Source: Pseudomonadota bacterium
GTDB taxonomy: Bacteria; Pseudomonadota; Gammaproteobacteria; Arenicellales; Poriferihabitantaceae
Reading direction: 5' to 3'
Assembly: GCA_039029455.1 (NCBI GenBank)
Contig: JBCCGE010000007.1
Location: forward strand, 370-64,369
DNA length: 64,000 nucleotides
The notes beneath the pieces are model-generated. The model was not told the origin of the DNA and ran no database searches. It was given only the letters and a program-made list of their open reading frames with translations. Positions 1,019-35,361 of the stretch are shown here, piece after piece; position 1 is the stretch's first letter; each line of letters starts with the position of its first letter. A program made the translations under genes and the position numbers.

Positions 1019-1090
1019 TTGACAAGATTTCGCGGCAGGATCACTATTCCCCAGATTGAACAAAGAGAAACCATACAGAGGAGACGAATC

Positions 1091-1894
1091 ATGTTTCGAC
1101 CCGGCGACACGGTGAATTCAACACCACGCACACCTAGTTTGGACGGAGGGCGGCACCATCGAGCAAAAATCGGATTCATTCTGATGTCCACCGACCTGGC
1201 TGCGGAGGCCGACTTTTTCGATATGGCGCCGAAAGATGTCGGCATCCATATCGCGCGTCTCAAAACGAACGACACCACGACAAATGAAACGCTGGCGGAG
1301 CACATTACTCACATGGCCGATGCGGCGTCCCGCGTTCAGCCCGACACGCGACCGTCGGTCATCAGCTACAGTTGCACATCCGGGTCGATCGTCAACGGCG
1401 AGCAACCTATCATGCGGGAAATAAAAAAAGGCGCGCCCTATGCCGAGCCAATGACTCTGGTGACCGGTGTGGTTGATGCACTGCGCGAGCTGGATGCACA
1501 ACGCATTGTGGTGGGAACACCCTACCTCGATGAAATTAATCAGCTCGAGGCGGAATTTCTGCACGCCAAGGGATTTGGTGTGCTCGATATTCAGGGTCTG
1601 AACCTTAAGACCGGCGTTGAATTCGGTCGTGTAACTCCCGAGTACTGGATTCAATTCGCACAGGAAATTGATCGGCCGGATGCGGACGCGGTTTTTCTCA
1701 GTTGCGGAGGTATTCGCACAGCAGAAGTTGCGGAACAAGTCGAACAGCTTATCGGCAAACCCGTCATTACCAGCAACACCGGACAGATGTGGAGCTGCCT
1801 GCGTCGCGCCGGCATTGATGATCAGATCAAGGGTTTCGGTCAGATTTTTGATCTGCCAGGCAATCGAATAGAACGACTCGATCTGGCGGCCTGA
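1091..1894 (+). CDS. Asp/Glu/hydantoin racemase-superfamily protein (maleate isomerase / arylmalonate decarboxylase / EutA-like)
   Basis: ATG at 1091 is preceded by a GGAG Shine-Dalgarno sequence; the ORF-track start at 1019 is an upstream extension. It carries the paired catalytic-Cys contexts SYSCTSGS and FLSCGGIR typical of this family. A paralog lies at 34621..35361. Confidence 0.75.
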   Translation: MFRPGDTVNSTPRTPSLDGGRHHRAKIGFILMSTDLAAEADFFDMAPKDVGIHIARLKTNDTTTNETLAEHITHMADAASRVQPDTRPSVISYSCTSGSIVNGEQPIMREIKKGAPYAEPMTLVTGVVDALRELDAQRIVVGTPYLDEINQLEAEFLHAKGFGVLDIQGLNLKTGVEFGRVTPEYWIQFAQEIDRPDADAVFLSCGGIRTAEVAEQVEQLIGKPVITSNTGQMWSCLRRAGIDDQIKGFGQIFDLPGNRIERLDLAA

Positions 1895-1908: not shown

Positions 1909-2736
1909 ATGATTGATACAGAAAAATTCAGGCGTGACGGCATCGTTTTCCCTGCCGGGAAAATTGATGTCGATGGTTTCGAACAGGCCTACTACGACTT
2001 CCAGGAAAGTTCACAAAAGCTGCGCGGCAAAGATACGTATTTAAAGCCGCATCTGGTCAGCCCGTGGCTGGATGAACTTGTTCGACATCCGCAGATACTT
2101 GACGACGTCGAAGCATTGATCGGGCCGGATATTGTGCTGTGGGAATCTGACTGGAGCGTAAAACGCGCCGGCACCGGAGACTATGTCCCCTGGCATCAGG
2201 ATTCCCCGTACTGGAATCTGTCGAGTGACGATGTGGTTTCAGTGTGGGTCGCGATCAATGATGTCACTGTGGATAACGGCGCCATGATGGTAGTGCCGGG
2301 GACACACGCGAAGGGTCAACTCGGTGAAATTGATGCCGACGGGAATCTTCATCAGGCCTATGCCGACGGTCAGCGCACCACCGACGAAAACTGCATGTTT
2401 CCCTTCGCCCACCTGAAAACCGACTACACGGATGAGGCGGTGTCAGTAGAACTCGACGCCGGAGAGTATTCGATTCACTCCGTGCACTTGATCCATGGAG
2501 GTGGACCCAATCCGTCCGACAAGGACCGGATCGGTTTTGCCATGCGGTACATCTCCGCAGAAACACGCAACATTGGCAGCGTGGATTCAGTGACAGCGGT
2601 CAGGGGGAACTGTGACCGGGACTATTACGTATTTGAATCCAGACCAAGCGGCGATTTCGTTCCGACAGATCTGGCCGCAATGGAGGAAGCGCTGACCTAT
2701 CCGAGTGGTTTTGGCGAAGCCAAGCGAGCGCGATAG
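1909..2736 (+). CDS. Phytanoyl-CoA dioxygenase (PhyH) family Fe(II)/2-oxoglutarate oxygenase
   Basis: 275 aa. It has an HxD motif in VPWHQDSPYW and a distal His in SVHLIHGGGPN, and its length and layout are typical of PhyH/ectoine-hydroxylase-like enzymes. Confidence 0.75.
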   Translation: MIDTEKFRRDGIVFPAGKIDVDGFEQAYYDFQESSQKLRGKDTYLKPHLVSPWLDELVRHPQILDDVEALIGPDIVLWESDWSVKRAGTGDYVPWHQDSPYWNLSSDDVVSVWVAINDVTVDNGAMMVVPGTHAKGQLGEIDADGNLHQAYADGQRTTDENCMFPFAHLKTDYTDEAVSVELDAGEYSIHSVHLIHGGGPNPSDKDRIGFAMRYISAETRNIGSVDSVTAVRGNCDRDYYVFESRPSGDFVPTDLAAMEEALTYPSGFGEAKRAR

Positions 2737-3041: not shown

Positions 3042-5906
3042 TTACGTTTTTTGAAGAATTGCAGTAAGGTGGGAGTGATCGCCATCGCGATCGTAGATAA
3101 TAACTTTCGATACGTTGCGTTCTATAAAATCCAGTTCTTTAGGGCCGATAAACGGGACGGACAAAGACTGTTTTCTGAGCAAGGCCTTCACCAAATCATA
3201 AGTCGTGGGCTGGTTACGTTCTACACCAGTTGGATACGAGTGCATCAACTTTCCGGAATCATATATATTTATCTCGGAAAGAAACGAGGTGTGCAAATCC
3301 TCGACAATGTAAACGCCGCCGGATTTCAAGTGGGGAAATAGGTAGGCCAGACTGATTTGCTGTTGCGACATCGTGTGTCCGCCGTCGTCAATAATAAGGT
3401 CAAACCCCGAACCTGCGAATTCAGCAAATGCTGTCAGGTCATCCGGGTTGCGTTGGTCGACTGTGTGCATGCTTATTCGGTCAGCATTTTCCAGTTCCGG
3501 AACCAGAATATCGATACCGTAGATGTTGGCGTTAGAAAAATAATCACGCCACATAAGCAACGATGAGCCGTTGAATATTCCGATTTCCAATACTTTAGTT
3601 ATCCGATCACGATGAGGCTCAAGATGTTCTGAGTAGAAATTGGTAAATCCGTGCTGAACCTTGTCTGTTCCGTAACGCTTCCCAAGAACGGTTAAAGCAT
3701 CTATTTTCGGTTGAAACGATTGAATCGGTTCAACTTCATGAATGTGTTGAGTTTTATCGTGGGTTAACACAGGCCCATCACTTTTGGAATCTACTGAATT
3801 GGAAACCAAATCATCACTTGACGACGCCCCGGGTCGGTTTCTCAAATAGCGCGACCACATATCCTCGAAGGCGTCTTCCAAAGTGGTGGCCAACGAAATT
3901 GGATCGCATAACGAACTACTTGCCATTTTTGAACGTAGCGTGCTGTGGTAGTGCTGAATCAGTTTTTGATCTTTTGCGAGCGCAACAGCTTTTTCAACAT
4001 ACTCATCGACACTTCCCGCCACTAACTCAGAAACTCCTGCAGCAACAAGTTTAGTTGCGCTCAGACGCTCTACATACCAGTCACCTGCGAGCGTAATCAC
4101 TGGCACACCCATCCACATAGCATCGCATGTAGTCGTACCACCTGTTCTGGGAAATGCGTCCAAAGCGATATCGATTTCCTGATAAGATTTCATGTAAACA
4201 TGATGTGGTTCGTTCGCCAAAAAACTAATCCGTTGTTTATCGATTCCGCGGCGGCGGAATCTCTTTGACCAGGTTTGACGTACTTGGCCATTCGAAAACC
4301 GTCGGTCTTTAAGCACGAGTTTAGATTCCGGGCATTGCTTTAGTATGGATACCCATGCATCAATAACTGACATATTGACTTTCGATACGTTATTGAAACA
4401 ACCGAACACCACGCTTTTGACATAACCTTGCCGGGGATTTTTTCTTTTTGATGATTTGAGCGACGAATACGGGACGCCATAACAAAAACTGCATCTCGGT
4501 AACCGGTATATCGTCTCTACCGCTGGCTCCGAGGTTTTTTCAGGATGCAGTACTTCATCAGTAATCCAGTAGTCGATTGCAGACATTCCGGTACTGCCGA
4601 AATATCCAAGATATGTCGCCTGAACAGGTGCAGGTCGCAAAGCCATCACACCGAGTCGATGATTTGCGGTGTGACCGGCCAGATCAATCAGAATATCAAC
4701 CTTATCCTGCTGAATCTGTGCAGCAACATCTTTATCCGACAGGCGAAACGTTGAAAACCACCGATCTGCTACTGATTTGAGCACCTGGGTGGCATCATCT
4801 TCGCGACTGGATTCGGAATAGCAAAATATTTTGACACGCTCGCCCGAGTGCACCAGCAAAACCGGTTCAAGAAACTGGCGGACTACATGATTTCTGAAGT
4901 CCGGTGACAAGTAACCTATATGTAAAGTACGATCGAGAGTCGGATCACGTTCATGTCGCAAATTTGATTTAGCAACTGATCCACCGTGATATCTATCCCA
5001 CTCTTGCAATTCCCTGCGCATCGATTCTGCAGATTTTATTCTTGAAGCATGCAATGCAAACAGGTAGTTGCTGCGCAGCTTGGATTCGGGGCTAAGGGAT
5101 AGTGCCGCTTTGTATGCTTTATCCGACTGCCCGTATTTTCCCAGGTTGCTAAGAGCGGCTGCTTTTCCAGACTGAACTGCAAATCCTGTGAGTCCATCCT
5201 TCTCCATTTTTTTGTATATTTTCAGTGCGTCATGATCTCGCGCGCAGCTTGAATATGCATTGGCCAACATGATCAACAGCTCCGGACTTTCCGGACGCTC
5301 CTTAATGAGTGTTTTGTACTGCGACAGTGCTTTTTTGTGGCGTCCGGTTTTGGTGTGTATCTCAGCAAGTCCTGTTCTCGCGCTAAGATTTTCCCGATCG
5401 ATTTTCAAAGCGCTCTGAAATGCAGCCCCGGCATGATCGAATTCTTCAAGTAAGTGATAACACCTACCCAGGCCGAGGTGACCGCTGAGCAGATGTCGAT
5501 CAAGCTCAATCGCGGCTTTGAACTGATCAATCGCAGACTCTAATTTGTCTAGCTTTTCCATAACCAACCCATAGTTGGCATAGGTTAACGCTAGATTTGG
5601 ATTGAGAGTGAGAGCCTTTTTGTGATGTCTGGCAGCTGCATCTAATTTGCCAAGAGAAGATAAGACCACACCGAGATTGTCGTGGGCCACTGCATTTTGC
5701 GGACCCAGTTCAACTGCCTTTTTTAACGTCGATGCCGCCTCATCCAGCAGACCCAAACGATGTTGTGTTGCCCCAAGATTTACAAGCAATGACTGATTCG
5801 TAGGATCAAGCGCGGATAACTGTTTATAACAAAGATGCGCCTGCTCATAGTTTCCGGCGGAAAAATGATTTTCAGCTTGGCGAGATTTTGTGTCGGATTC
5901 CGTCAA
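3042..5906 (-). CDS. Three-module protein: N-terminal TPR repeats + GT41 (O-GlcNAc transferase / SPINDLY-like) glycosyltransferase + C-terminal class I SAM-dependent methyltransferase
   Basis: 954 aa. About 8 TPR-like units occupy roughly aa 10-290. GT41 hallmarks are ILIDLAGHTANHRLGVMALRPAPVQATYLGYFGSTG and RTGGTTTCDAMWMGVPVITLAG. A Ser/Asp linker is followed by a methyltransferase fold (VLEIGIFNGSSLLMWRDYF, LIIDDGGHTMSQQQ, GGVYIVEDLH). The only possible start is TTG at 5906, because a stop lies 2 codons upstream, and it has no clear Shine-Dalgarno sequence. Confidence 0.85.
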   Translation of the reverse strand: MTESDTKSRQAENHFSAGNYEQAHLCYKQLSALDPTNQSLLVNLGATQHRLGLLDEAASTLKKAVELGPQNAVAHDNLGVVLSSLGKLDAAARHHKKALTLNPNLALTYANYGLVMEKLDKLESAIDQFKAAIELDRHLLSGHLGLGRCYHLLEEFDHAGAAFQSALKIDRENLSARTGLAEIHTKTGRHKKALSQYKTLIKERPESPELLIMLANAYSSCARDHDALKIYKKMEKDGLTGFAVQSGKAAALSNLGKYGQSDKAYKAALSLSPESKLRSNYLFALHASRIKSAESMRRELQEWDRYHGGSVAKSNLRHERDPTLDRTLHIGYLSPDFRNHVVRQFLEPVLLVHSGERVKIFCYSESSREDDATQVLKSVADRWFSTFRLSDKDVAAQIQQDKVDILIDLAGHTANHRLGVMALRPAPVQATYLGYFGSTGMSAIDYWITDEVLHPEKTSEPAVETIYRLPRCSFCYGVPYSSLKSSKRKNPRQGYVKSVVFGCFNNVSKVNMSVIDAWVSILKQCPESKLVLKDRRFSNGQVRQTWSKRFRRRGIDKQRISFLANEPHHVYMKSYQEIDIALDAFPRTGGTTTCDAMWMGVPVITLAGDWYVERLSATKLVAAGVSELVAGSVDEYVEKAVALAKDQKLIQHYHSTLRSKMASSSLCDPISLATTLEDAFEDMWSRYLRNRPGASSSDDLVSNSVDSKSDGPVLTHDKTQHIHEVEPIQSFQPKIDALTVLGKRYGTDKVQHGFTNFYSEHLEPHRDRITKVLEIGIFNGSSLLMWRDYFSNANIYGIDILVPELENADRISMHTVDQRNPDDLTAFAEFAGSGFDLIIDDGGHTMSQQQISLAYLFPHLKSGGVYIVEDLHTSFLSEINIYDSGKLMHSYPTGVERNQPTTYDLVKALLRKQSLSVPFIGPKELDFIERNVSKVIIYDRDGDHSHLTAILQKT

Positions 5907-5910
5907 ACGT

Positions 5911-5943
5911 TAAATTAAAAAGTGATTGCTTCGATTCAATCAC
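5911..5943 (-). terminator. Intrinsic-terminator-like hairpin between the exported-protein gene and the TPR-GT41-MT gene
   Basis: The minus strand reads GTGATTG-aatcgaag-CAATCAC followed by TTTTTAATTT. That is a perfect 7-bp stem with an 8-nt loop and a T-run ending about 10 nt before the TTG start at 5906. Confidence 0.5.
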
Positions 5944-6077: not shown

Positions 6078-6731
6078 TTAAGATAACACAACGATGGAAC
6101 ACACTCCTTGTGGCGATATTTCCAGGCGGCTAAATCCATTAACTCGGGTTGTAACGAAAAATCCGGTAGGTTCCCCAAAGAGAACAACTCCTGTCTCATC
6201 ACAACACGTCACATTAGCAACATTTGAGTTAAAGAAATTGAAAGAATTTGAATCCCCGATTACGGCGGTCAGATCGATGTCATATGTTCCTGGATCGAAG
6301 GTTGAAGATCCCGTGATTGTGTAGAAACCGGAACTCCCTTGATCTGCACTGCCGAGCTGCTGACCTCCTACAATCAGAGCAACCCGGACTTCCTGAGCGA
6401 ATCCGCTCACGCTAAATGAGACCGGACAAAAAGGTTCGGTCGTTGCTGGCGGGTTTGTCGTACTATCCCCGGGAGGGTTTGTGGTATTTGTTCCTTCACC
6501 AGGCCCCCCTCCTGTGTCCGGGGAGGTAGACGCGTGCGCCGGAATCACCAACGACTCTATCACCGGTTTTTTCCATCCACTGGCGACCAAACCACCCATG
6601 GCCAATCCGCCACTGCCTGCGATCGTTCGTATCAGCTTACGCTTTGCAGAACCCGAAGGATTGTCAAAATCTTTCAATACACCGCGTCTTTTGATACTTG
6701 TATTTTCGTCGGTTTCACGCACTTTTTTCAC
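6078..6731 (-). CDS. Exported protein P1: long basic leader ending in PAHA, Thr/Pro/Gly-rich linker, Cys-containing beta-rich C-terminal domain (unknown family)
   Basis: The preferred start is GTG at 6731, with GAGGGAG 8 nt upstream. The ORF track starts at GTG 6836 (252 aa) with no Shine-Dalgarno sequence, which would add an uncharged hydrophobic N-extension. The leader is ...SAKRKLIRTIAGSGGLAMGGLVASGWKKPVIESLVIPAHA, followed by STSPDTGGGPGEGTNTTNPPGDSTTNPPATTEP. The motif is shared with the gene at 28652..28987. Confidence 0.65.
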   Translation of the reverse strand: MKKVRETDENTSIKRRGVLKDFDNPSGSAKRKLIRTIAGSGGLAMGGLVASGWKKPVIESLVIPAHASTSPDTGGGPGEGTNTTNPPGDSTTNPPATTEPFCPVSFSVSGFAQEVRVALIVGGQQLGSADQGSSGFYTITGSSTFDPGTYDIDLTAVIGDSNSFNFFNSNVANVTCCDETGVVLFGEPTGFFVTTRVNGFSRLEISPQGVCSIVVLS

Positions 6732-7082
6732 AACATTGACTCCCTCGTTAGCCTGAATATGAGTGTAGGTGAAAGTCACAAAAAGTGTCAAGCAACTGGT
6801 TGAAAGGATCAAATTGACGCCGGTCGTAGTCGACACGAGGCGTGTGCTGACGGTCGACGTGCAATGGATAAATCAGTCTGATTACGTTTTCACTCCAGTT
6901 GAAGCAGGTGAGTAGACGGTCCAATACATGGATACTGTAAAAAAGGTGGCCAGGGAAGAACAGATCGGCGGCGACACAGTAAGCACTGATCTTCCAGAGC
7001 GGTCCTTGCGAAAACAGACGATCGCGCTAAATCGTGTAAAACTACGGCTCCTTTCATCGGTAGCGCACCAAGCCCTATGAGA

Positions 7083-8285: not shown

Positions 8286-8299
8286 CTAATGCGAGCCTC

Positions 8300-9523: not shown

Positions 9524-10285
9524 TTAGACTGTGAACAACAGGTCGGTTCGTACAATGTATTTGGTACCACTAACGATCGGGGCTGAACTGTGCACACAGT
9601 GCAAAGGATGTGTGCCGTGTGGGAAAAGCAATAATCCGCCTTTGGGCACTCTGATATTCATTACTACGGGTGTATCACCCTGAACAGCGGGCCTGTCAGG
9701 ATTACTCTGACTCACCATAAACTGAGTGTCACCGCCCTCAAAGTCGTCAGATAGAAAGAACAATGCGCTCATTCGACTGAATCGATCACCAAACGCGTCC
9801 GCGCGCAGTTCTCCATCCACGATTCGACTGCCTGGCCACGCTCCATCGGTATGTGGCCTGAAATAATCGCCCTTTTGATAACGATAGAATCGAAAACGAC
9901 AATTCAATCCAACGGGCGGCCTGCCACCAAAGATGTCCGGCAACTGCTGAAGGCAATTCTCAATTCTGGACCACAGTATATCGTGCGTCTGGTCGTCGAT
10001 CACCCAAACGATGTTGTCGTTATGGCGAACCGATCGCGGCAGTGATACAGCAGCATCGGGCAGGTACTCAAGAGTTTCGGACAACTCAATAAAGTTACTG
10101 CACTCATTTTCTTTAAGAACGTCGTTAATCTGACACGCGCCGGGTACCGTCGAGATGTGCTCAAGACTGACTTGATCTGCGGAATCACACAGGTTAAGCG
10201 GATTCGCGGTGTGACATCCCCACGTCGGCAACGCCGAATGCTCAGCACCGGACTCATATGCGGCCACGTAAAACCCGTGCATCAC
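9524..10285 (-). CDS. Prolyl 4-hydroxylase-like (P4Hc-type) 2OG-Fe(II) oxygenase
   Basis: It has HxD in FRPHTDGAW, then FEGGDTQF, then LLLFPHGTHPLHCVHSSAPIVSGTKYIVRTD (distal His plus the K/R that binds 2OG). This pattern is typical of P4H alpha-subunit homologues. Confidence 0.7.
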   Translation of the reverse strand: MMHGFYVAAYESGAEHSALPTWGCHTANPLNLCDSADQVSLEHISTVPGACQINDVLKENECSNFIELSETLEYLPDAAVSLPRSVRHNDNIVWVIDDQTHDILWSRIENCLQQLPDIFGGRPPVGLNCRFRFYRYQKGDYFRPHTDGAWPGSRIVDGELRADAFGDRFSRMSALFFLSDDFEGGDTQFMVSQSNPDRPAVQGDTPVVMNIRVPKGGLLLFPHGTHPLHCVHSSAPIVSGTKYIVRTDLLFTV

Positions 10286-12287: not shown

Positions 12288-13211
12288 ATGACCCGTAAAC
12301 GATATCAGCGCTTTGTGGAACGCATCGAACTTGGAGATAGCATTCTGATTGATGGTGCAACCGGAACAGAAGTCGAAATTCGCGGCGTACCCCAGCTCGA
12401 GAATGCATGGAACGGCGGGGCGGCACTGTCGCACCCGGAGATTCTTAAACAGGTGCATTTGGATTATCTGAATCACGGTGCCGAATTGATTATCTCCAAC
12501 ACCTTCGGCACAGCCCTGCATGCGCTTATTGACAGCGGGGTTGGGGATGATTTCGAAGCGTTAAATCGACGCGGAGTCGAGATCGCAATCGAGGCGCGTG
12601 AACAGGCCGGCAAACCCGATGTTCTGGTTGCGGGCGGAGTCACACACTGGTCCTGGAACGGACGACATCCGGCGTTGGATGAATTGAAATCCTCAGCTAC
12701 CGAGCAAGCGCAAATCATGGCGGATGCCGGTGCTGATCTGATCATGCTTGAGATGATGGTTTACATCGACAAAATGGTGGCGCTAATTGAGGCCGGGCAG
12801 GCTTGTGACTTACCGGTTTGGGTCGGCTTGACACTGGAGATACACGACGACGGGTCGATCCGACTGCCCGGTCGTGGGGAACGGCTCGAAGAAGCGATCG
12901 ATTCCATTCGGTCATACAACGTTCCCCTCGTCTCAGTGATGCATACGGAAGTTGATGATGTCGATGCCTGCCTGGCAGAACTCAAAAACCACTGGACGGG
13001 CCCTATAGGTGTCTATGCCCACTCGACTCGATTTCACGATCAGCGTACCGTTGTTCGAAACACCACGATTTCGCCGGAGTCTTATGCTGAGGCCAGCCAA
13101 CGATGGCTTCGTGCCGGCGTCCAGGTCATCGGCGGCTGCTGCGGCGTAGGCGTCCCTCACATCAAGACCTTATCAGAACAGATGGCCGCGTCGCGTCGCC
13201 CGTCGCAATGA
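12288..13211 (+). CDS. Homocysteine S-methyltransferase family protein (MmuM/BHMT-like, Zn-dependent)
   Basis: 307 aa. It has ILIDGATGTE near the N-terminus and the Zn-binding GGCCGVGVPHI near the C-terminus. Confidence 0.8.
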   Translation: MTRKRYQRFVERIELGDSILIDGATGTEVEIRGVPQLENAWNGGAALSHPEILKQVHLDYLNHGAELIISNTFGTALHALIDSGVGDDFEALNRRGVEIAIEAREQAGKPDVLVAGGVTHWSWNGRHPALDELKSSATEQAQIMADAGADLIMLEMMVYIDKMVALIEAGQACDLPVWVGLTLEIHDDGSIRLPGRGERLEEAIDSIRSYNVPLVSVMHTEVDDVDACLAELKNHWTGPIGVYAHSTRFHDQRTVVRNTTISPESYAEASQRWLRAGVQVIGGCCGVGVPHIKTLSEQMAASRRPSQ

Positions 13212-23239: not shown

Positions 23240-23794
23240 CTAGTTTGCAACCAGCAAACTATCGAGAAGAGATGTAATACGAGGGTCGTAAGGCGCCACG
23301 GTAGCACCGAATCGGGCCACCACTTCTCCGTTGCGATCAACCACATACTTGAAGAAGTTCCATTTCGGTGCACCTGCCTGTTCGGCGAGCTCCATAAAAA
23401 GTGGATGTGCATCAGGGCCCTTGACCGGCACCGGCGCCATCATCGGAAAACTCACACCAAAATTTAAGAAGCAGATCTTTGCGGCTTCCTGCTCCGTCCC
23501 AGCAGCCTGATGAAACGAATCGGATGTCACGCCGAGGAACCCGACGCCGCGCTTCCCGTACTCCTGATGCAGTGCTTCAAGACCCTCGAACTGATGTGTG
23601 AATCCACAGTGGCTGGCGGTATTCACTACAAGGGCAGGTTTGCCGGCGAGAAGCTCACACAAATGACTACTTTCCGAGCTGTGCAGATGTTTCATCTGAT
23701 GATCAAACACTGCCGGACACAGGTCACTGGCCCAGCCCACTCCGGGAATCAGACAACAAAATAATATCGCCAGATACCCGCGCACTATATCCAC
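23240..23794 (-). CDS. Glutathione peroxidase-family protein with signal peptide
   Basis: NTASHCGFTHQFEGLEALHQEYGKRGVGFLGVTSDSF is the Cys-type GPx active-site context. The N-terminal hydrophobic leader is AILFCCLIPGVGWA. Confidence 0.8.
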   Translation of the reverse strand: MDIVRGYLAILFCCLIPGVGWASDLCPAVFDHQMKHLHSSESSHLCELLAGKPALVVNTASHCGFTHQFEGLEALHQEYGKRGVGFLGVTSDSFHQAAGTEQEAAKICFLNFGVSFPMMAPVPVKGPDAHPLFMELAEQAGAPKWNFFKYVVDRNGEVVARFGATVAPYDPRITSLLDSLLVAN

Positions 23795-25341
23795 TCAGGT
23801 TCAAGTTGGGGCTCGTCACGACCCAGAGATTCCTTTCGTTTTGCGACGTATTCGTTGAGAGCTTCCCTGATCCCCGGATCTGTAGGTGGCGCCTCAAATT
23901 CCTGCAATACGTTTTGCCAGAGCTCTGTGGCACGTTCGGTGGCATTTTTTGACCCGGCCTGCGTCCAGTTCTCATGGTTCTGCCAGTCACTTAGAAACGG
24001 TTCGTAGAACGCACTTTTGTAGCGCTCCATGGTGTGAGCACAACCAAAGAAGTGACCGCCGGGCCCGACCTCTTCCATTGCCTCGAGACCAATCTCACCC
24101 AGATCAATTTTGGGAGGCTGCAGGAATTGACTCATGTGCTGAAGCATTTCGACATCGGTAATTATTTTTTCAAAAGACGCGACCAGTCCGCCTTCGAGCC
24201 ATCCTGCCGTGTGATAGATCAAATTACCGTGACCGAGCACCGACCCCCATAACGACATCTGGGTCTCGTACGTGGATTGAGCGTCAACGGCATTGGAAGC
24301 GTTACAGGCGCTGGTCCGGTGGGGCAATTTATAGAGCCTGGAAAGTTGCCCACCTGCCATATTCGCCAGTGAGTTTTCCGGTGTGCCAAACGCCGGGGAG
24401 CCGGACCGCATATCAACATTGGATGTAAAACCACCATATATCACCGGTGTTCCGGGATTCGTCAGTTGCAACAGTGTGATCCCAAGCAGGGCCTCGGCAT
24501 TAGCCTGCACCAGAGCCCCTCCAAGAGTCGCTGGTGTCATCGCGCCCATCAACGTAAACGGCGTGACGGTTACCGGCTGACCAAGTATGGCGAGTTGCAT
24601 TGCTCCGTAGGCCATACTGTCATCGAGCTTGCGTGGAGAATTAATATTGATGTTCGTCATCACGAGCGGACGGCTCTTCAGATCCTCCAGACTCAGGCCG
24701 TTTGCGATGGCGCCCATATTTGCCGCATCAAGCACACGACCCGCACCGATACCGGTTGCGAAAAAAGGTTTATCCGACAGCGTCAGATTCTCGAAAGTCG
24801 TATCGAGGTGACGGTTATTCACCGGCAGATCTGTGGGCGCAGTTGCCTGATTGCCATAAAACGTCAGGACGTTGAAGTACTGGCCAAACTTGATCAGTTT
24901 TCGATAGTCCTCGATGTTGCCCATCCGACGACCACCAATATTGTCGTGCACATTCGGGGTACCCGACACCAGACCAAAATTGATCACATCGCCGCCGACC
25001 CGGAGTGTGTTGTCCGGGTTGCGGGGAACAACCTCGAACGTTTCCGGCGCCTTTGCAATAGTTTCCATCACCAGATTTCGATCGAGCCGAACGATACCGT
25101 TCGAACTTACATCAGCGCCGGATTTCGAGAACATATCGAGAGCCTGCTGCCCCAGAACTTCCACACCCTGCTCTTCAAGCAGCTGCAGAGAGGTATTATG
25201 TATCAGCTGCACCTGATCTTCGCTAAGAGGCTCAACTGGGGCAAACCGGTTGCGAAGGACGCGACGCTCAATCTGTTTTACCGCAGACTCAACAACCTGT
25301 TCTACTTCAGTATTTTGTCTTCGACGACCTCTGCGAGCCAT
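23785..25341 (-). CDS. MttB-superfamily methyltransferase, non-pyrrolysine type (quaternary amine:corrinoid/THF methyltransferase-like)
   Basis: 518 aa uninterrupted, with no in-frame TAG. The N-terminus MARRGRRRQ...EPLSEDQVQLIHNTSLQLLEEQGVEV...VRLDRNLVMETIAKAPETFEVVPRNP matches the bacterial MttB-family layout as I recall it. Confidence 0.8.
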   Translation of the reverse strand: MARRGRRRQNTEVEQVVESAVKQIERRVLRNRFAPVEPLSEDQVQLIHNTSLQLLEEQGVEVLGQQALDMFSKSGADVSSNGIVRLDRNLVMETIAKAPETFEVVPRNPDNTLRVGGDVINFGLVSGTPNVHDNIGGRRMGNIEDYRKLIKFGQYFNVLTFYGNQATAPTDLPVNNRHLDTTFENLTLSDKPFFATGIGAGRVLDAANMGAIANGLSLEDLKSRPLVMTNININSPRKLDDSMAYGAMQLAILGQPVTVTPFTLMGAMTPATLGGALVQANAEALLGITLLQLTNPGTPVIYGGFTSNVDMRSGSPAFGTPENSLANMAGGQLSRLYKLPHRTSACNASNAVDAQSTYETQMSLWGSVLGHGNLIYHTAGWLEGGLVASFEKIITDVEMLQHMSQFLQPPKIDLGEIGLEAMEEVGPGGHFFGCAHTMERYKSAFYEPFLSDWQNHENWTQAGSKNATERATELWQNVLQEFEAPPTDPGIREALNEYVAKRKESLGRDEPQLEPEWI

Positions 25342-27201: not shown

Positions 27202-28506
27202 TTATTCGTTCCAGATGCAGGTTTCTCTACGATTTACCCATTCGCCTGACTTAAGACAGGGCCAGGTCACGATGCGTGTCGGTGGCAGCGTAGATTCAAA
27301 TTTCAGGTAAAAAAAATGTTCATCCCGGTCCCAGACCTCTGCATGGGTCTCCTGGGTGATGTCTGTGCGATGAATCAGAAACATATTGTCGGTATGCGCA
27401 GCACAACAAATCATCTCGATATCCGATTTATCCACACCCTCAAAATGGCTGGGATCAAATTTGAATTCAATATTGTGTACCAGCTTCCCGTTATCGTTCA
27501 GCAACGCACGTTTCCGATAAATTATGCCGCTCTTCTGGATAAACTCATCACGGGTTCTGACATCGCCGAGTCCGAATTTGCCCAGTTCCAGAGAGTCATC
27601 GCCTGTACCAAAAAGAGCCCGGCATCGACTCTGTGACGTCAGATCGCGTTCATGCCAGACAGTGCTGTCCTGAATTTCACTGCGTTTATCCTCCTCGTGA
27701 TCACTCCAGTGTTTATGCAGCGTGTACATTCGCATGTACTCGTGCCAGATCACACATTTCGGCGGATGAAATACGTCATAACCATGGGTAAAGGCACGCA
27801 GCGAGATCGTGTTTTCCTCGCCGAGAAAGTAGATCTCCGGATCGTGTGGTACATCGGAAACAAACGATCCGTGCGCAAAACAAAAATGGCCTGAATACAG
27901 CGTTCCGGGCGTTGGCGCGTCCGACGGCTTAATGTGACCGGCTTGATGCATCGGCACGCCGTGATGAGTAAAGGCGCTAACAACCAAGCCATTTCCGTGT
28001 TGTTCCAGTCGCGATGTATCCGCGCATGGCTCCGTATACAAAAAGTTCAGACTGTCTGGATCCGGATCTGTTTCCTGATAGAAGGATTCCGACCCCATGG
28101 GTCGATAGTTATTGACATATGTGGTCAGCATGGGCTTTTTAATACCGTCCCGGACTAGCGTTTCGAAGGTATTAATCAGGTATGTATCCCAACCGCGAGC
28201 AAATCGATGATGAGAATCCAGATGTAGCGTATAAGGTTCACTGTCGTATTGCTGCTGGAGCTGATATCGGGCCCAGCATACGCCTTTGCTTTCCTGCCAC
28301 GGGAATTCCAGTATTTTGAACTGTGCTTTGTCTGATAGTGCATCAAGTTCAGGCTTGACCTGTTCGTACTCCGATGGACTGTGCTGCCATGCAATCGAAA
28401 ACACCAGATTTTCAGGCGCATCCGCTTTAAAAACGCAATCCTTTAAAGTCGAAACCAGCTCTGGGTCACGATACGAGGCAATTTGAACAAAAATCTTCGA
28501 ATTCAC
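27202..28506 (-). CDS. GT60/GT27-like polypeptide glycosyltransferase, paralog a (Pfam 'GlcNAc' / Skp1-HyPro GlcNAc-transferase Gnt1-like)
   Basis: The motifs are IFVQIASYRDPEL, YTLHLDSHHRF (a DxH metal motif like LDSHCE of ppGalNAc-transferases) and GHFCFAHGSFVSDVPHDPEIYFLGEENTISLRAFTHGYDVFHP. The ORF-track start at 28581 would include a terminator hairpin, so the likely start is GTG 28506 or TTG 28515. A C-terminal domain of roughly 130 aa is unassigned. Confidence 0.75.
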   Translation of the reverse strand: MNSKIFVQIASYRDPELVSTLKDCVFKADAPENLVFSIAWQHSPSEYEQVKPELDALSDKAQFKILEFPWQESKGVCWARYQLQQQYDSEPYTLHLDSHHRFARGWDTYLINTFETLVRDGIKKPMLTTYVNNYRPMGSESFYQETDPDPDSLNFLYTEPCADTSRLEQHGNGLVVSAFTHHGVPMHQAGHIKPSDAPTPGTLYSGHFCFAHGSFVSDVPHDPEIYFLGEENTISLRAFTHGYDVFHPPKCVIWHEYMRMYTLHKHWSDHEEDKRSEIQDSTVWHERDLTSQSRCRALFGTGDDSLELGKFGLGDVRTRDEFIQKSGIIYRKRALLNDNGKLVHNIEFKFDPSHFEGVDKSDIEMICCAAHTDNMFLIHRTDITQETHAEVWDRDEHFFYLKFESTLPPTRIVTWPCLKSGEWVNRRETCIWNE

Positions 28507-28518
28507 TTCCTTCAACGC

Positions 28519-28547
28519 ATAAAAAAGCCGACTTACGGAGTCGGCTT
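28519..28547 (-). terminator. Rho-independent terminator downstream of exported-protein gene P2
   Basis: The minus strand reads AAGCCGACT-ccgta-AGTCGGCTT followed by TTTTTTAT. That is a perfect 9-bp GC-rich stem with a 5-nt loop and a T6 run. Confidence 0.85.
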
Positions 28548-28651: not shown

Positions 28652-28987
28652 TTAAGGGGGAGCCGTCGGTGATGGCGATGGGCTCGTCGACATTGAAACA
28701 AGTGGAGCCGACGGACTCGGTGACATCATGGGAGTTTGTGAAACCATAGGCGATGGTGTTGGCGGTGGCTGTGTCGTCCCTCCGCCCGGACCGCCGCCTG
28801 TATCGGTGGTGGCCGCATGTGCAGGCATAACCACAGATCGAACCGTCGGCTTCACCCATTCTTTGTCGAGGGTTTGTGTAATGCCTATGGCACCACTTGC
28901 AGCCAGCAGTTTGCTGATTGCTTTTCGTCTGGATGTCGTTCTATCCAGTTCTTCACGGGACACGGATTTTTTATCATTTGTGCTCAC
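28652..28987 (-). CDS. Exported protein P2: same PAHA leader as P1, followed by a Ser/Thr/Pro-rich tail (or a frameshifted C-terminus)
   Basis: The preferred start is GTG at 28987, with GGAG 6 nt upstream; the ORF-track start is TTG at 28999. The leader ...TSRRKAISKLLAASGAIGITQTLDKEWVKPTVRSVVMPAHA is followed by ATTDTGGGPGGGTTQPPPTPSP.... A second open frame (28638..28859) overlaps the 3' half. Confidence 0.6.
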   Translation of the reverse strand: MSTNDKKSVSREELDRTTSRRKAISKLLAASGAIGITQTLDKEWVKPTVRSVVMPAHAATTDTGGGPGGGTTQPPPTPSPMVSQTPMMSPSPSAPLVSMSTSPSPSPTAPP

Positions 28988-29493: not shown

Positions 29494-30765
29494 GTGCCCT
29501 CTGATCAATCACGCATACTTCTGCATATCCCGGCCTATCGCGAGCCAGAGTTGATCCCGACAATAGAAGACGCGCTGCAGCAGGCCAAATATCCCGAGCG
29601 CGTTGTCTTCGGGATTTGTCGACAATTCAGCGAAACTGATGGTTTTGACAATCTCGATCGATATCGATCAGACCCTCGCTTCAAGATTATCGATATGCCT
29701 CACACTGAAGCCAGGGGACTCGCATACGCCAGAGCATTGATCAACGACACGCTGCTCGACGATGAAGAATATATTCTCCAGCTGGATTCTCATCATCGCT
29801 TTGCCCATCATTGGGATGACACTCTGATCACCTGGCACCGGGATCTTGAGCGAGATGGATACAACCCAATCCTCACTGGCTATCTGCCCAGCTACAACCC
29901 CAAAAACGACCCGGATGAGCGCGTTCAGGAGCCCTGGATGCAGCGCGTCAACTATTTTTTCAGCCACGGCACTATCTTTATCCAACCGGTCTTGCTAACG
30001 GACTGGGAAAACTGTGATGCTCCAGTGCCGTCTCGTTTTATCTCGGGTCACTTTGCGTTTGCACGGAACGCCTGGGCGAAAACAGTTCGCCACGATCCGG
30101 GAATTTTTTTCTCAGGTGAGGAAATTTCACTAACCGTGCGCTCCTACACCCACGGCTATGATCTTTTTCATCCGCACAGAGTCGTTGTCTGGCATGAAAC
30201 CATGCGTGATTCTCGAGACGGCAAACTCGTATGGGATGACATGGCAAAAACCGACCGCAGCGACCAGTTCTGGCAGAAGGAGTCTGACGCCCGTGCTCGC
30301 ATTCGTCATCTTCTCGGAAGCAGTGATGAGTCGCATGATATGACAGGGTTCGAGTTAGGCACAGTCAGAACACTTGGCGAATACGAGCGTTATGCTGGCA
30401 TACATTTTGCCAGCCGACGGGTTCAGCCAGAAACGTATGATGCAAGGTTTCCACCCAACCCTTTTCAAAGCGATGACCAGTGGACAGAGTCGCTAAAGTA
30501 TATCGGTGCCTGCCATTTCCAGATCACTTCACGAGACTTTCCGTCAAAGGACTACGATTTCATTCTGGTCGCCTTTGACGATGATCAGGGACTCTGTATC
30601 AGACGATTAAACGTATCGGGCGCCCCGTTAAAGTCGTTGATGGAGCAGGGTACCGAGGTTACAGTCAACGAACGCTTCTTATCCGACGTTAGGATTGCCC
30701 GAGTTGTTTGCTGGGGATATAGTGACGCACGCGGCTGGCTTGAACGAACCGAAATCCGTCTCTAA
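29494..30765 (+). CDS. GT60/GT27-like polypeptide glycosyltransferase, paralog b
   Basis: The motifs are ILLHIPAYREPEL, YILQLDSHHRF and GHFAFARNAWAKTVRHDPGIFFSGEEISLTVRSYTHGYDLFHP, colinear with 27202..28506. The start is GTG. 423 aa. Confidence 0.75.
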   Translation: MPSDQSRILLHIPAYREPELIPTIEDALQQAKYPERVVFGICRQFSETDGFDNLDRYRSDPRFKIIDMPHTEARGLAYARALINDTLLDDEEYILQLDSHHRFAHHWDDTLITWHRDLERDGYNPILTGYLPSYNPKNDPDERVQEPWMQRVNYFFSHGTIFIQPVLLTDWENCDAPVPSRFISGHFAFARNAWAKTVRHDPGIFFSGEEISLTVRSYTHGYDLFHPHRVVVWHETMRDSRDGKLVWDDMAKTDRSDQFWQKESDARARIRHLLGSSDESHDMTGFELGTVRTLGEYERYAGIHFASRRVQPETYDARFPPNPFQSDDQWTESLKYIGACHFQITSRDFPSKDYDFILVAFDDDQGLCIRRLNVSGAPLKSLMEQGTEVTVNERFLSDVRIARVVCWGYSDARGWLERTEIRL

Positions 30766-30772
30766 ACACGCG

Positions 30773-34620: not shown

Positions 34621-35361
34621 TTAATTCAACAGAGTACCCAGTCGGCCCGGTACGTTACCACGCAGACCCAGACGCTTGCAGGCCACATACATGAGTGCCT
34701 GATTGCTCGTTACAACAGGTTTATCAATTTGTGTTTCAAGATCATCAACCACCTCGACCGCTCGCATGTCGGTGCACGAGAGAATGACCGCCGCAGCGCG
34801 ATCGTTATTCGCCTGCAGGCCGAGCTGCAGCACGGCCGACGGAGTCAACTCTCCCTGGCCGTAGTTGCCCAGGTCTTCACCGACGTATTGCAGCTGAACC
34901 ACATCAATTCCGCTTTGACGGACAAACTCCGCTCCTTCCCGGTTCAGCGTTTCCGTATACGGCGACGCAAATGATGCCGAATCAATGTTGAGATCGCGCA
35001 ACGCTTCAACCAGCGCACCCGCGGCCGTGATAGCGGACACGCCCGACCGGGTCTCCATACGCTGACGAAATGTTTGGTCGTAGTCCGGACCAAAAGACAG
35101 AGTAGCGGAGGTGCAACCATAGATCACCGCGTCCGGACGAACCGCACACAGGGCATCGAGAACCGATTCAAGCGACGTCTCAGCGAACTGCCGCATCTGC
35201 TCCGAATCGGGTATCTCGTCCAGATCATAGCCACCGGCACGCATGCTGTGGATCGACACACCTGCGGGCTTCATCATCTGCATATCCGGTTCCAGATTAG
35301 AATTCGACACAGGAACAATGACACCGATCCGAGCAGATCCACGATCAGTCGTGTTTTTCAT
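34621..35361 (-). CDS. Asp/Glu/hydantoin racemase-superfamily protein (maleate isomerase/arylmalonate decarboxylase-like)
   Basis: It has the paired Cys contexts IYGCTSATLS and ILSCTDMRA. Its ATG overlaps the upstream stop (ATGA). Confidence 0.75.
   Translation of the reverse strand: MKNTTDRGSARIGVIVPVSNSNLEPDMQMMKPAGVSIHSMRAGGYDLDEIPDSEQMRQFAETSLESVLDALCAVRPDAVIYGCTSATLSFGPDYDQTFRQRMETRSGVSAITAAGALVEALRDLNIDSASFASPYTETLNREGAEFVRQSGIDVVQLQYVGEDLGNYGQGELTPSAVLQLGLQANNDRAAAVILSCTDMRAVEVVDDLETQIDKPVVTSNQALMYVACKRLGLRGNVPGRLGTLLN

Follow-up and report, generated by a model that had tools for sequence, protein, structure and literature searches.

A composite leader with Tat-like and RiPP-like features on two candidate glycosylation substrates of a Poriferihabitantaceae bacterium

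Described systems related to the leader and its neighbours

Linear polyphosphorylated peptides (LPP) are RiPPs reported to be restricted to Bacillota, whose clusters encode an RRE, an HprK kinase and an NTP-transferase together with a SipW-like SpI leader peptidase (LppS) and an MsbA-like exporter (Popov et al., Nat Commun 2026, PMC13381572). Their precursors are 35-200 aa long with a conserved leader and variable C-termini, and the kinase phosphorylates Ser3 of the core; LppK did not accept Thr. The leader is bound through the RRE motif [Y/W]xxPx[LVIFA], with Tyr at -16 in LPP leaders. In the paeninodin-type lasso leader PbaA, which is recognised by a B1 (PqqD-like) RRE, residues W-15, P-12 and L-10 sit in RRE pockets while residues -9 to -7 extend the RRE beta-sheet (PMC13381572). 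HprK kinase and nucleotidyltransferase tailoring is found in this type of lasso peptide (PMC13381572, PMC6993621, PMC10368454), and PsmK and PsmN phosphorylate and then glycosylate pseudomycoidin (PMC6993621).

Tat signal peptides combine an S-R-R-x-L-L-K motif, a weakly hydrophobic Gly/Ala-rich core and an A-x-A site, and some are bound by cytoplasmic chaperones of the TorD/DmsD/NapD type until the cargo is finished. Bufferins and DUF2282 precursors are RiPPs in which a general Sec export signal doubles as the removable N-terminal part of a modified precursor (PMC11626156, PMC12710340). Polypeptide alpha-GlcNAc transferases of family GT60 were characterised in Dictyostelium and Trypanosoma cruzi (PMC8724618, PMC3769586). 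The characterised enzymes are eukaryotic Golgi enzymes, and no bacterial GT60 substrate is known to us. Glycosylation in the cytoplasm by a neighbouring glycosyltransferase before export is exemplified by HMW1C/NGT (GT41) with the HMW1 adhesin and by GtfA/B with serine-rich repeat adhesins.

Two dissimilar proteins that share a leader

The window analysed here is a stretch of 64,000 nucleotides from a Pseudomonadota bacterium of the Arenicellales (assembly GCA_039029455.1, contig JBCCGE010000007.1, positions 370 to 64,369 of the forward strand). The first-pass annotation proposed that two otherwise dissimilar exported proteins, P1 (6078..6731, minus strand) and P2 (28652..28987, minus strand), share a long leader and a DTGGGPGxGT tract, each directly upstream of a protein-glycosyltransferase gene. 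This observation is confirmed, including the ORFs and their translations. A six-frame motif scan finds W.KP...PAHA plus GGGPG only at 6498..6575 and 28784..28858, both on the minus strand, and BLASTP of P1 against P2 aligns only the leader (E = 7e-8). An HMM built from 42 other family leaders, without P1 or P2, hits the six-frame window only at P1 (3.4e-20) and P2 (1.4e-19), the next hit having E = 0.29. In the 30-codon shared block 19 residues are identical but only 5 codons are, and nucleotide identity is 55/90. The similarity is thus conserved at the protein level, and recent duplication or gene conversion was rejected as its source.

The best start of P1 is GTG 6731, which follows GAGGGAG and lies downstream of a promoter-like TTGACA-18-TACACT at 6791..6762. 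The N-terminus of the resulting 217-aa protein aligns with those of 13 subfamily homologues, and the 252-aa ORF from 6836 and the deposited 244-aa call are probably too long. P2 starts at GTG 28987 behind GGAG, which equals the deposited 111-aa protein. The leaders extend to A-H-A over 67 aa in P1 and 58 aa in P2.

The P1 leader (6531..6731, minus; residues 1-67) has a long n-region with an extra K-R-R at residues 14-16, a degenerate twin-arginine motif S-A-K-R-K-L-I-R (28-35) and a Gly/Ala-rich h-region. It ends with W53-K-K-P-V-I-E-S-L-V-I-P-A-H-A67 (6531..6575, minus), a putative RRE-binding motif (W-15, P-12, I-10) plus a predicted A-x-A cleavage site. Residues 68-99 (6435..6530, minus), STSPDTGGGPGEGTNTTNPPGDSTTNPPATTE, place S-T-S at +1 to +3 and continue with a Gly/Thr/Pro/Asn tract that is absent from other members of the P1 subfamily; AF2 gives low pLDDT in this segment. 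The mature domain (6081..6434, minus; residues 100-217) is a predicted nine-strand beta-sandwich with four invariant Cys (C102, C176, C177, C211), for which pLDDT is mostly 62-92 per 10-residue block and no significant PDB fold match was found.

In P2 the corresponding element, W44-V-K-P-T-V-R-S-V-V-M-P-A-H-A58 (28814..28858, minus), is again a putative RRE-binding motif (W-15, P-12, V-10) plus a predicted A-x-A site and is preceded by T-S-R-R-K-A-I-S-K-L-L. It is followed by a 53-aa Ser/Thr/Pro-rich core (28655..28813, minus), ATTDTGGGPGGGTTQPPPTPSPMVSQTPMMSPSPSAPLVSMSTSPSPSPTAPP, which starts with A-T-T and is a mucin-like candidate acceptor. The spacing to the invariant W is 24 residues in P2 (R20 to W44) and 23 in P1 (K30-R31 to W53), within the 22-25 of the family, whose mode is 24. 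While the P2 sequence T-S-R-R-K-A-I-S-K fits the [ST]-R-R-x-[FL]-L-K motif of Tat signals, P1 has K-R instead of R-R at the canonical position, and neither protein gets a hit to the Tat models TIGR01409 and PF10518. Pfam and NCBIfam have no model for the leader or for the mature parts of P1 and P2.

Terminator-like hairpins with T-runs separate both genes from the glycosyltransferase genes that follow on the same strand, at 5922..5943 (minus) behind P1 and at 28525..28547 (minus, 9 pairs) behind P2. The gene at 3042..5906 (minus) codes for a protein of 954 aa in the longest ORF, with many TPR families, an OGT-like GT41 domain (PF13844, 4.3e-52; 177.5 bits against a cutoff of 25) and a C-terminal Methyltransf_24 domain (PF13578, 8.1e-07). 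It is a candidate modifier of P1. The gene at 27202..28506 (minus), GT60a, codes for a PF11397 GlcNAc family protein (2.5e-54; 185.5 bits against a cutoff of 21), a candidate polypeptide glycosyltransferase for P2. A second PF11397 gene, GT60b (29494..30765, plus; 1.8e-53; 182.7 bits), is transcribed divergently from P2 and is followed by a gene for an HtrL_YibB-like protein (30695..32362, plus; PF09612, 2.5e-15). No PqqD, HprK-like or PF14907 homologue was found in the window, and profile-profile comparison revealed no RRE-like region in the GT60 enzymes (probability 0.1%).

A large unnamed leader family

Word-indexed homologue searches with P1 and with the two-leader alignment returned only the deposited proteins themselves, showing that a k-mer prefilter misses this family. 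A search of genome contigs with uninformative patterns (DTGGGPG[EG]G and the N-terminus) gave 321 unconfirmed stretches. An exhaustive HMMER search with the two leaders was needed and gave 1,681 representative protein clusters at E <= 1e-3; the family thus has at least 1,681 clusters, in Gammaproteobacteria, Alphaproteobacteria, Desulfobacterota and Chloroflexota. Of the best 150, 116 carry W.[KR]P.{7}P[AS]H[AS]. A degenerate DNA pattern for the motif hit at least 114 genome loci where about 2 would be expected by chance according to our estimate, and 106 of 118 motif hits have [RK]R at the expected upstream distance. Many members come from sponge symbionts and marine Arenicellales, and many paralogues per genome carry diverse cargo. 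Cultured carriers are Flexilinea flocculi TC1, Tepidamorphus sp. 3E244, Desulforhopalus singaporensis DSM 12130 and Caldilinea aerophila. Literature searches for the motif strings LPAHA, PAHAQ and VLPAHA found nothing relevant.

The consensus leader is S-R-R-K-L-L-K, a Gly/Ala-rich core, then L-P-x-x-W-x-K-P-V-V-x-S-V-x-L-P-A-H-A | Q-T-[ST]. In the logo anchored on the 116 proteins RR is present in 112, the RR-to-W spacing is 22-25, residues W, P, P, H and A are invariant and the median leader length is 50 aa. Position +2 is Thr in 81% and +3 is Thr or Ser in 99% of these proteins, while in the genome loci +3 is Ser in 75% and Thr in 22%. The only curated models that any members match are Tat-signal models, with weak hits to TIGR02811 in 23/100, TIGR01409 in 8/100 and PF10518 in 4/100.

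Gene neighbourhoods of the leader

Across the 114 genome loci, PqqD was found in 24, HprK-like in 19, PF14907 in 15, GT2 in 5, GT60 in 3, HtrL in 3, GT41 in 1 and GT9-like in 1, with any of these in 30 loci. The remaining 84 loci show no modification gene in the DNA examined, which is at most 8 kb per locus. An association of the motif with glycosyltransferase genes had been set beforehand as a test of the substrate/enzyme reading: the motif is very common and most family members have no glycosyltransferase neighbour, but where the PqqD, HprK-like and PF14907 genes occur the leader gene usually lies directly next to them. Loci of Tepidamorphus sp. 3E244 and Flexilinea flocculi TC1 encode the RRE, kinase and NTP-transferase; in the Tepidamorphus locus (L119) the PqqD-like protein and its neighbouring leader are encoded by genes 12453..12722 and 10001..10264. 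RRE domains are fused to GT10, to GT2+GT25 and to pyruvyl transferase, and HprK is fused to GT2. The PqqD-like proteins match PqqD (5sxy, 1.3e-5) and the lasso RRE TbiB1 (5v1u, 2.1e-5). Among 136 ORFs in 22 of these loci there is no recurrent dedicated peptidase or ABC exporter, although only the 25 commonest families were listed and single occurrences cannot be excluded. Ser at +3 is no more frequent in HprK-adjacent loci than elsewhere (14/18 against 63/86, p = 0.78).

Both pairs of the window recur in unrelated contigs (related loci are designated L followed by a number). P2-type precursors lie next to GT60 in four other loci, L127, L010/L119, L054 and L035, where the cores are analogously S/T/P-rich. 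A GT60a homologue lies directly downstream of the gene for P0087 in L127 (7.8e-70), and GT60a was aligned with the enzymes of L010, L054 and L119. The HtrL_YibB-like family accompanies GT60 in L010/L119, L054 and L035 (phmmer hits 1.2e-119 to 8.6e-50). P1-type proteins lie next to a GT41 orthologue in L120 and L124, the catalytic region of the window enzyme matching at E about 1e-166, with a partial case in L069 (two recurrences, perhaps three). A further arrangement, the leader gene with two TPR-GT9-like genes and DUF5672, is found in L003 and L126; a first GT41 hit in L003 was due to TPR cross-matching, as Pfam shows TPR plus a GT9-like domain there.

Comparison with described systems

The related loci resemble LPP clusters in holding a discrete PqqD-type RRE, an HprK-like kinase and a PF14907-type NTP-transferase next to a precursor of tens to a few hundred residues with a conserved leader and variable C-termini. 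They also share an aromatic-x-x-P-x-hydrophobic motif about 15-16 residues before the cleavage site, here predicted, a hydroxyl residue at core position 3, a predicted signal-peptidase-I-type cleavage logic and frequent embedding among glycosyltransferases. They differ in that the motif is preceded by a Tat-like signal, the predicted cleavage site is A-x-A, W replaces Y, no SipW-like LppS or MsbA-like exporter recurs and the hosts are Pseudomonadota, Desulfobacterota and Chloroflexota. The window itself has only the glycosyltransferases.

The register of the motif, measured from the predicted cleavage site, is identical to that of PbaA, with W-15, P-12 and a hydrophobic residue at -10 followed by a strand-forming stretch. 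HprK kinase and nucleotidyltransferase tailoring genes are also shared with paeninodin-type lasso peptides. However, neither a macrolactam synthetase (C) nor a B2 cysteine peptidase appears among the recurrent neighbour families or among the window genes scanned next to P1 and P2, and the cargo reaches about 300 aa, including folded domains. The family leader shares with Tat signals bound by chaperones the S-R-R-x-L-L-K motif, the weakly hydrophobic Gly/Ala-rich core, a predicted A-x-A site and the concept of a cytoplasmic protein that binds the signal until the cargo is finished. Compared to such signals, the c-region is about 19 residues long and strongly conserved, the putative binder is a PqqD-fold RRE rather than a TorD-family protein and the "cofactor" would be a glycan or phosphate. 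Bufferin and DUF2282 precursors likewise have an export signal that doubles as the removable N-terminal part, but use Sec rather than the Tat route inferred here and different enzymes, and no specific RRE motif is reported in their leaders (PMC12710340), whereas here a strict motif follows the signal. The PF11397/GT60 enzymes lie next to a Thr/Ser/Pro-rich, mucin-like candidate acceptor, P2, but unlike the characterised Golgi enzymes the GT60 enzyme here has no signal sequence and would act in the cytoplasm. The window GT41 carries TPRs and scores 36 bits against a cutoff of 1000 for the NGT model, and the export route and leader differ from those of HMW1 and of the serine-rich repeat adhesins.

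A candidate pathway of modification before export

The first-pass annotation read P1 and P2 as substrates of the adjacent enzymes, with the Thr/Pro/Gly tract as a mucin-like target possibly modified in the cytoplasm before export, an interpretation that our analysis supports in part. The pairing is supported by conserved synteny, and modification before export fits the frequent adjacency of cytoplasmic PqqD-type RRE, kinase and glycosyltransferase genes. The description of the leader as an unusually long Tat- or Sec-like presequence needs correction, as its conserved part has the register of a RiPP recognition motif (PMC13381572). The Thr/Pro/Gly tract may not be the acceptor for GT41, because GT41-linked P1 homologues lack it; what is nearly invariant is x-[TS]-[ST] at +1 to +3.

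The explanation that we favour, with moderate confidence, is that P1 and P2 are precursors with a leader in three parts. A twin-arginine export signal, [ST]-R-R-x-L-L-K plus a Gly/Ala-rich core, would precede a W(-15)-x-[KR]-P(-12)-x-[VI](-10)-x-S-V-x-L-P element, read as the docking site for a PqqD-type RRE or for the modifying enzyme itself. An A-H-A signal peptidase I site would complete it, followed by x-[TS]-[ST] and often a Gly/Thr/Pro-rich tract. In this view the leader holds the newly made protein in the cytoplasm, where neighbouring enzymes would modify Ser/Thr just after the cleavage site or in the S/T/P tract. These would be the TPR-GT41 enzyme for P1 and the two GT60 enzymes plus the HtrL-like protein for P2; in other genomes they would be an HprK-like kinase, a PF14907 NTP-transferase and glycosyltransferases fused to an RRE or to the kinase. 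The product would then leave through Tat and housekeeping signal peptidase I would remove the leader, which fits the lack of a recurrent peptidase or exporter. The family, the motif and its register, the Tat-like features and the gene neighbourhoods are established by the sequence analysis, while RRE binding, glycosylation or phosphorylation and their acceptor sites, the donor sugars, Tat dependence and the cleavage site are inferred from sequence and synteny alone. The four invariant Cys of the P1 domain suggest disulfides formed after export, which is not expected of a protein folded before Tat transport. This feature counts against the model, as do the absence of PqqD, HprK-like and PF14907 homologues from the window, the absence of an RRE-like region in the GT60 enzymes, the failure of P1 and P2 to reach any Tat model, the K-R of P1, the 84 loci without a modification gene, the missing tract in GT41-linked homologues and the lack of Ser enrichment at +3 beside HprK.

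A broader and more tentative possibility, which we consider slightly less likely than not, is that the leader defines a widespread, undescribed class of leader-guided protein and peptide modification in Gram-negative bacteria and Chloroflexota, in which a Tat export signal is fused to a lasso/LPP-type RRE recognition sequence. RiPP-style machinery (RRE, kinase, NTP-transferase and many glycosyltransferase families) could then decorate anything from 7-residue peptides to folded 300-residue proteins in the cytoplasm, the general Tat and signal peptidase machinery replacing the dedicated leader peptidase and exporter. P1/GT41 and P2/GT60 would be the first candidate native substrate/enzyme pairs for bacterial TPR-GT41 and GT60 enzymes, whose native substrates are largely unknown. 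If the reading is right, it joins RiPP leader recognition by RRE domains with general protein export and glycosylation, and extends the LPP and phosphorylated-lasso tailoring logic, reported only in Bacillota, to at least four other phyla and to full-size proteins. It also gives a simple sequence handle, [ST]RR-x(21-23)-W-x-[KR]-P-x7-P-A-H-A, for finding thousands of candidate modified secreted peptides and proteins. The composite leader could be useful for engineering leader-directed glycosylation coupled to export.

Alternative readings

The leader might be an ordinary Tat signal peptide of one expanded family, in which W-x-K-P...A-H-A is only a family-specific c-region serving Tat targeting or signal peptidase and the neighbouring glycosyltransferases act on polysaccharides or other proteins. 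This is compatible with the exclusive match to Tat-signal models among curated models, with the majority of loci lacking modification genes, with the absence of an RRE in the window and with a member that has a 7-aa core (P0161) and sits among unrelated genes. It is nevertheless unlikely, since the leader stays conserved across phyla while the cargo is unrelated and signal peptidase I or Tat recognition is not known to require an invariant W and two invariant P over 15 residues. Furthermore, PqqD-type RRE genes, which are rare in genomes, lie beside the leader gene in 24 of 114 loci, some fused to glycosyltransferases, and both specific pairs recur.

It is less likely still that the element is a sorting or processing signal read after export by a dedicated periplasmic or envelope factor, as an N-terminal analogue of sortase- or exosortase-type signals. 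Conservation across the predicted cleavage site (L-P-A-H-A | Q-T-S) and the many paralogues with diverse cargo are reminiscent of such signals. However, no recurrent candidate sorting enzyme was found in the neighbourhoods, the genes that do recur encode cytoplasmic-type proteins and the register matches a characterised cytoplasmic RRE-binding motif (PMC13381572).

An equally improbable reading, a pure RiPP-type leader without export role whose R-R and Gly/Ala-rich segment take part in enzyme recognition and which an unidentified protease removes, draws on the resemblance of the PqqD, HprK-like and PF14907 loci to LPP and lasso tailoring sets and on the failure of P1 and P2 in Tat models, but is opposed by the lack of a recurrent leader peptidase and exporter, which a stand-alone RiPP pathway would need, by the nearly invariant RR at fixed spacing in an S-R-R-x-L-L-K context followed by an uncharged Gly/Ala-rich stretch and A-x-A, and by the 23-31% of members that hit Tat-signal models.

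The P1 and P2 genes

Two proteins encoded in the window, P1 and P2, translate as reported in the first-pass annotation, and its observation of a shared leader is confirmed. A six-frame scan locates the W-x-K-P...P-A-H-A block and the GGGPG tract exclusively at 6498..6575 and 28784..28858, both on the minus strand. BLASTP aligns the two proteins only over the leader (E = 7e-8). In the shared block of 30 codons 19 residues are identical but only 5 of them use the same codon, and nucleotide identity is 55/90. The similarity is therefore kept by selection on the protein and does not result from a recent DNA copy.

P1 most likely starts at GTG 6731. This codon follows GAGGGAG and is localized downstream of a promoter-like TTGACA-18-TACACT, while the amino terminus of the resulting protein aligns with those of 13 homologues. 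The deposited annotation (244 aa, which would put the start at TTG 6812) and the longest ORF (252 aa) begin upstream of the promoter-like site and add, within 6732..6836 (minus), a hydrophobic stretch that no homologue has. The deposited start is thus probably miscalled. P2 starts at GTG 28987 behind GGAG, which corresponds to the deposited protein of 111 aa. Counted to A-H-A, the leaders of P1 and P2 are 67 and 58 residues long, respectively.

Each gene is separated from the next one by a terminator-like hairpin with a T-run. The next genes code for a TPR + GT41 + Methyltransf_24 protein, in the case of P1, and for a PF11397 (GT60) protein, in the case of P2. A second GT60 gene and an HtrL_YibB-like gene are transcribed divergently from P2.

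A leader shared by a very large, unnamed protein family

Word-indexed searches found only the deposited proteins, which come from a Pseudomonadota MAG. In contrast, an exhaustive HMMER search with a profile of the two leaders found 1,681 representative clusters at E <= 1e-3, and 116 of the best 150 carry W.[KR]P.{7}P[AS]H[AS]. A degenerate DNA pattern for the motif hit at least 114 loci in the species-representative genomes, where about two would be expected by chance according to our own estimate. Of 118 motif hits, 106 have [RK]R at the right distance upstream. The hosts are Arenicellales and other Gammaproteobacteria, including the sponge symbionts Poriferihabitaceae and Spongiihabitans; Xanthobacteraceae, Bradyrhizobium and Rhodobiaceae; Desulfobulbaceae and Desulfarculaceae; and Anaerolineae and Caldilineae. 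Several genomes carry many copies, sometimes in tandem. Two leader-bearing genes lie in the same locus in L037, L042, L082 and L103 (L numbers designate genome loci with leader genes), several of them nearly identical in the leader, which points to local duplication of precursors.

The anchored consensus is M-x(~8)-S-R-R-K-L-L-K-S-I-A-A-G-S-G-A-V-V-A-G-K-S-L-P-E-S-W-s-K-P-V-V-D-S-V-v-L-P-A-H-A, followed after the predicted cleavage site by Q-T-[TS] and often by D-D-G-G...T-T-T-P. RR is present in 112 of 116 sequences with an RR-to-W spacing of 22-25, the residues W, P, P, H and A are invariant, and the median leader has 50 residues. An HMM built from 42 other leaders finds P1 (3.4e-20) and P2 (1.4e-19) and nothing else in the window.

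The regions after A-H-A are unrelated to each other. They range from 7 to about 300 residues and include S/T/P-rich peptides, a His-rich peptide and Cys-containing domains. Some members have very short cores. The His-rich one (HHHYHDDSCTHDDHDHHYHD), found in the family protein P0221 (87 aa), could bind metal. A conserved TITSGMFAG(T/S)G core recurs in the three proteins P0173, P0234 and P0242, while P0161 has a core of 7 residues (QASPPTV) and is found on 17 contigs. The DTGGGPGxGT tract pointed out in the first-pass annotation is a recurrent variant of the family's linker, as P0014, P0018, P0058, P0062, P0065, P0087 and P0089 show [ST]GG[GDE]PGxGT.

Pfam and NCBIfam have no model for the extension. 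The only hits among family members are weak matches to Tat-signal models. Their source names are 'hypothetical protein' and, once, 'twin-arginine translocation signal domain-containing protein'.

Genomic neighbourhood of the leader genes

All ORFs of the 114 loci were clustered and a jackhmmer census was then taken. PqqD-family genes are found in 24 loci, HprK-related kinase in 19, PF14907 NTP_transf_5 in 15, GT2 in 5, GT60 in 3, HtrL in 3, GT41 in 1 and TPR-GT9-like in 1. At least one of these is present in 30 of the 114 loci. Most family loci show no modification gene, within the stretch of at most 8 kb examined for each. Identities were confirmed with NCBIfam and Pfam. Where the PqqD, HprK-like and PF14907 genes occur, the leader gene is usually their immediate neighbour. 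The PqqD-like proteins match PqqD and the lasso RRE TbiB1 in the PDB.

Large fusion proteins with a PqqD-type RRE or an HprK-like kinase domain are also encoded beside leader genes. They combine GT10 with PqqD in L068 (4371-6269), PqqD with GT2 and GT25 in L038 (2-2137), and polysaccharide pyruvyl transferase with PqqD in L044 (3722-5935). A similar pyruvyl-transferase protein in L077 (1189-3459) matched the PqqD seeds only in the jackhmmer census. DUF6065, HprK and GT2 are fused in L082 (2353-4956), and HprK and GT2 in L071 and L007. No signal peptidase or ABC exporter recurs among 136 ORFs from 22 loci with such modification genes.

Relation to linear polyphosphorylated peptides and lasso peptides

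Linear polyphosphorylated peptides (LPP) were described in Bacillota by Popov et al. (Nat Commun 2026, PMC13381572). The LPP clusters encode an RRE, an HprK kinase and an NTP-transferase. Their precursors have 35-200 aa with a conserved leader and variable carboxyl termini, and the kinase polyphosphorylates Ser3 of the core. The clusters often sit in glycosyltransferase-rich loci. The RRE binds a [Y/W]xxPx[LVIFA] motif and, in the crystal structure of the paeninodin-type pair, PbaA W-15, P-12 and L-10 fill RRE pockets while residues -9..-7 extend the RRE sheet. Counted from A-H-A, the leaders studied here feature W-15, P-12 and V/I-10, followed by x-S-V, which is exactly the same register. A hydroxyl residue is found at +3 in 97-99% of members. 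In pseudomycoidin, an HprK-type kinase and a PF14907-like nucleotidyltransferase phosphorylate and then glycosylate the peptide (PMC6993621). The authors of the LPP study state that LPP and paeninodins are restricted to Bacillota. Literature searches found no paper describing the version fused to a Tat signal.

Recurrence of the P1 and P2 gene pairs

P1 belongs to a subfamily of proteins of about 180-200 aa whose leader reads N-P-x-G-A-A-R-R-R-L-L-R-A-L-G-G-S-G-G and whose mature domain has four invariant Cys. AF2 models this domain as a nine-strand beta-sandwich without significant match in the PDB. The gene of the homologue P0030 is followed directly by a TPR-GT41 gene (L120). P0006 is found in the arrangement glmS - 68 aa - P0006 - 130 aa - TPR-GT41 - uvrD (L124, 5806-13981), with glmU a few genes upstream of glmS. 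GlmS and GlmU make UDP-GlcNAc, the usual GT41 donor. Both GT41 proteins match the catalytic region of the window enzyme at E about 1e-166. The window GT41 protein (3042..5906, minus) carries an extra carboxyl terminal Methyltransf_24 domain (residues 773-870) after its TPR and GT41 parts, while the proteins of L120 (695 aa) and L124 (658 aa) are shorter and seem to lack it. L069 shows a partial version of the same arrangement, and glmS lies close to the P1-type gene again in L122 and L069.

P2-type short precursors with S/T/P-rich cores lie next to GT60 genes in several loci. In L127 the gene of P0087 is followed by a GT60 that matches the window's GT60a, the GT60 gene that follows P2, at 7.8e-70. 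In the isolate Tepidamorphus sp. 3E244 (L010/L119) the order is precursor, GT60, HprK-like, PqqD and HtrL-like. The pairing is also found in a Rhodobiaceae MAG (L054) and in a Deltaproteobacteria MAG (L035). GT60 is the family of the protist polypeptide alpha-GlcNAc transferases that start mucin-type O-glycosylation on Thr (PMC8724618, PMC3769586).

A third arrangement, with a leader protein, two TPR-GT9-like genes and DUF5672, recurs in L003 and L126. The L126 precursor (P0065) has GTGGGPGGGT. Downstream of this cluster L126 codes (7389-8687) for a P450 fragment and an NRPS-type AMP-binding/PP-binding/thioesterase gene.

A putative composite leader

The most likely explanation, held with moderate confidence, is that the leader is composite, with a Tat signal followed by an RRE-type docking motif and an A-x-A site. 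In this view the docking motif would be bound in the cytoplasm by a PqqD-type RRE or directly by the modifying enzyme, the TPR domain being an obvious candidate in the case of GT41. Ser/Thr residues just after the cleavage site, or in the S/T/P tract, would be glycosylated and, in loci with the kinase, phosphorylated and then further decorated. Tat would then export the product and signal peptidase I would remove the leader, which would explain why no dedicated peptidase or exporter accompanies these loci. The family, its motif and register, the Tat-like features and the neighbourhood statistics are established by the sequence analysis, while binding, acceptor sites, Tat dependence and cleavage are inferred.

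Several results speak against this model. The window has no RRE, kinase or NTP-transferase, GT60 shows no RRE-like region, and most family loci show no modification gene in the stretch of at most 8 kb examined. P1 and P2 miss the Tat models and P1 has K-R at the canonical site. A second basic cluster, K-R-R (I-K-R-R-G-V-L-K; P1 residues 14-16, 6686..6694, minus), lies 15 residues upstream of this degenerate K-R-K and might make up for the missing twin arginine. The P1 homologues linked to GT41 lack the Thr/Pro tract, so that this tract need not be the GT41 acceptor. Ser at +3 is not enriched near kinases. The four invariant Cys of P1 suggest disulfides formed after export.

A plain Tat signal, next to unrelated glycosyltransferases, is an unlikely alternative. 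A sorting signal read after export, or a pure RiPP leader without export role, is slightly less likely still.

The interpretation of the first-pass annotation is thus partly supported. Its pairing of substrates with enzymes is backed by conserved synteny, but the leader, taken there as a long signal peptide, is better read as a Tat signal fused to a RiPP recognition sequence. Such a system would be close to the LPP and phosphorylated-lasso tailoring systems and to Tat signals, all already known. Its interest lies in the size of the family, its spread across phyla and the concrete experiments that it allows.

Other genes in the window

A PhyH-family dioxygenase gene (1909..2736, plus) lies convergent with the GT41 gene and a weak 2OG-Fe(II) oxygenase (9524..10285, minus) is found a few genes upstream of P1. 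In Dictyostelium a prolyl hydroxylase acts before the GT60-family enzyme on Skp1. The window codes also for two arylmalonate-decarboxylase/Asp-Glu-racemase-like proteins (1019..1894, plus, and 34621..35361, minus), a fused hydantoinase A/B (oxoprolinase-like, 1244 aa; 35358..39092, minus) and an MttB-family methyltransferase (23785..25341, minus), which looks like a catabolic context unrelated to the leader proteins.
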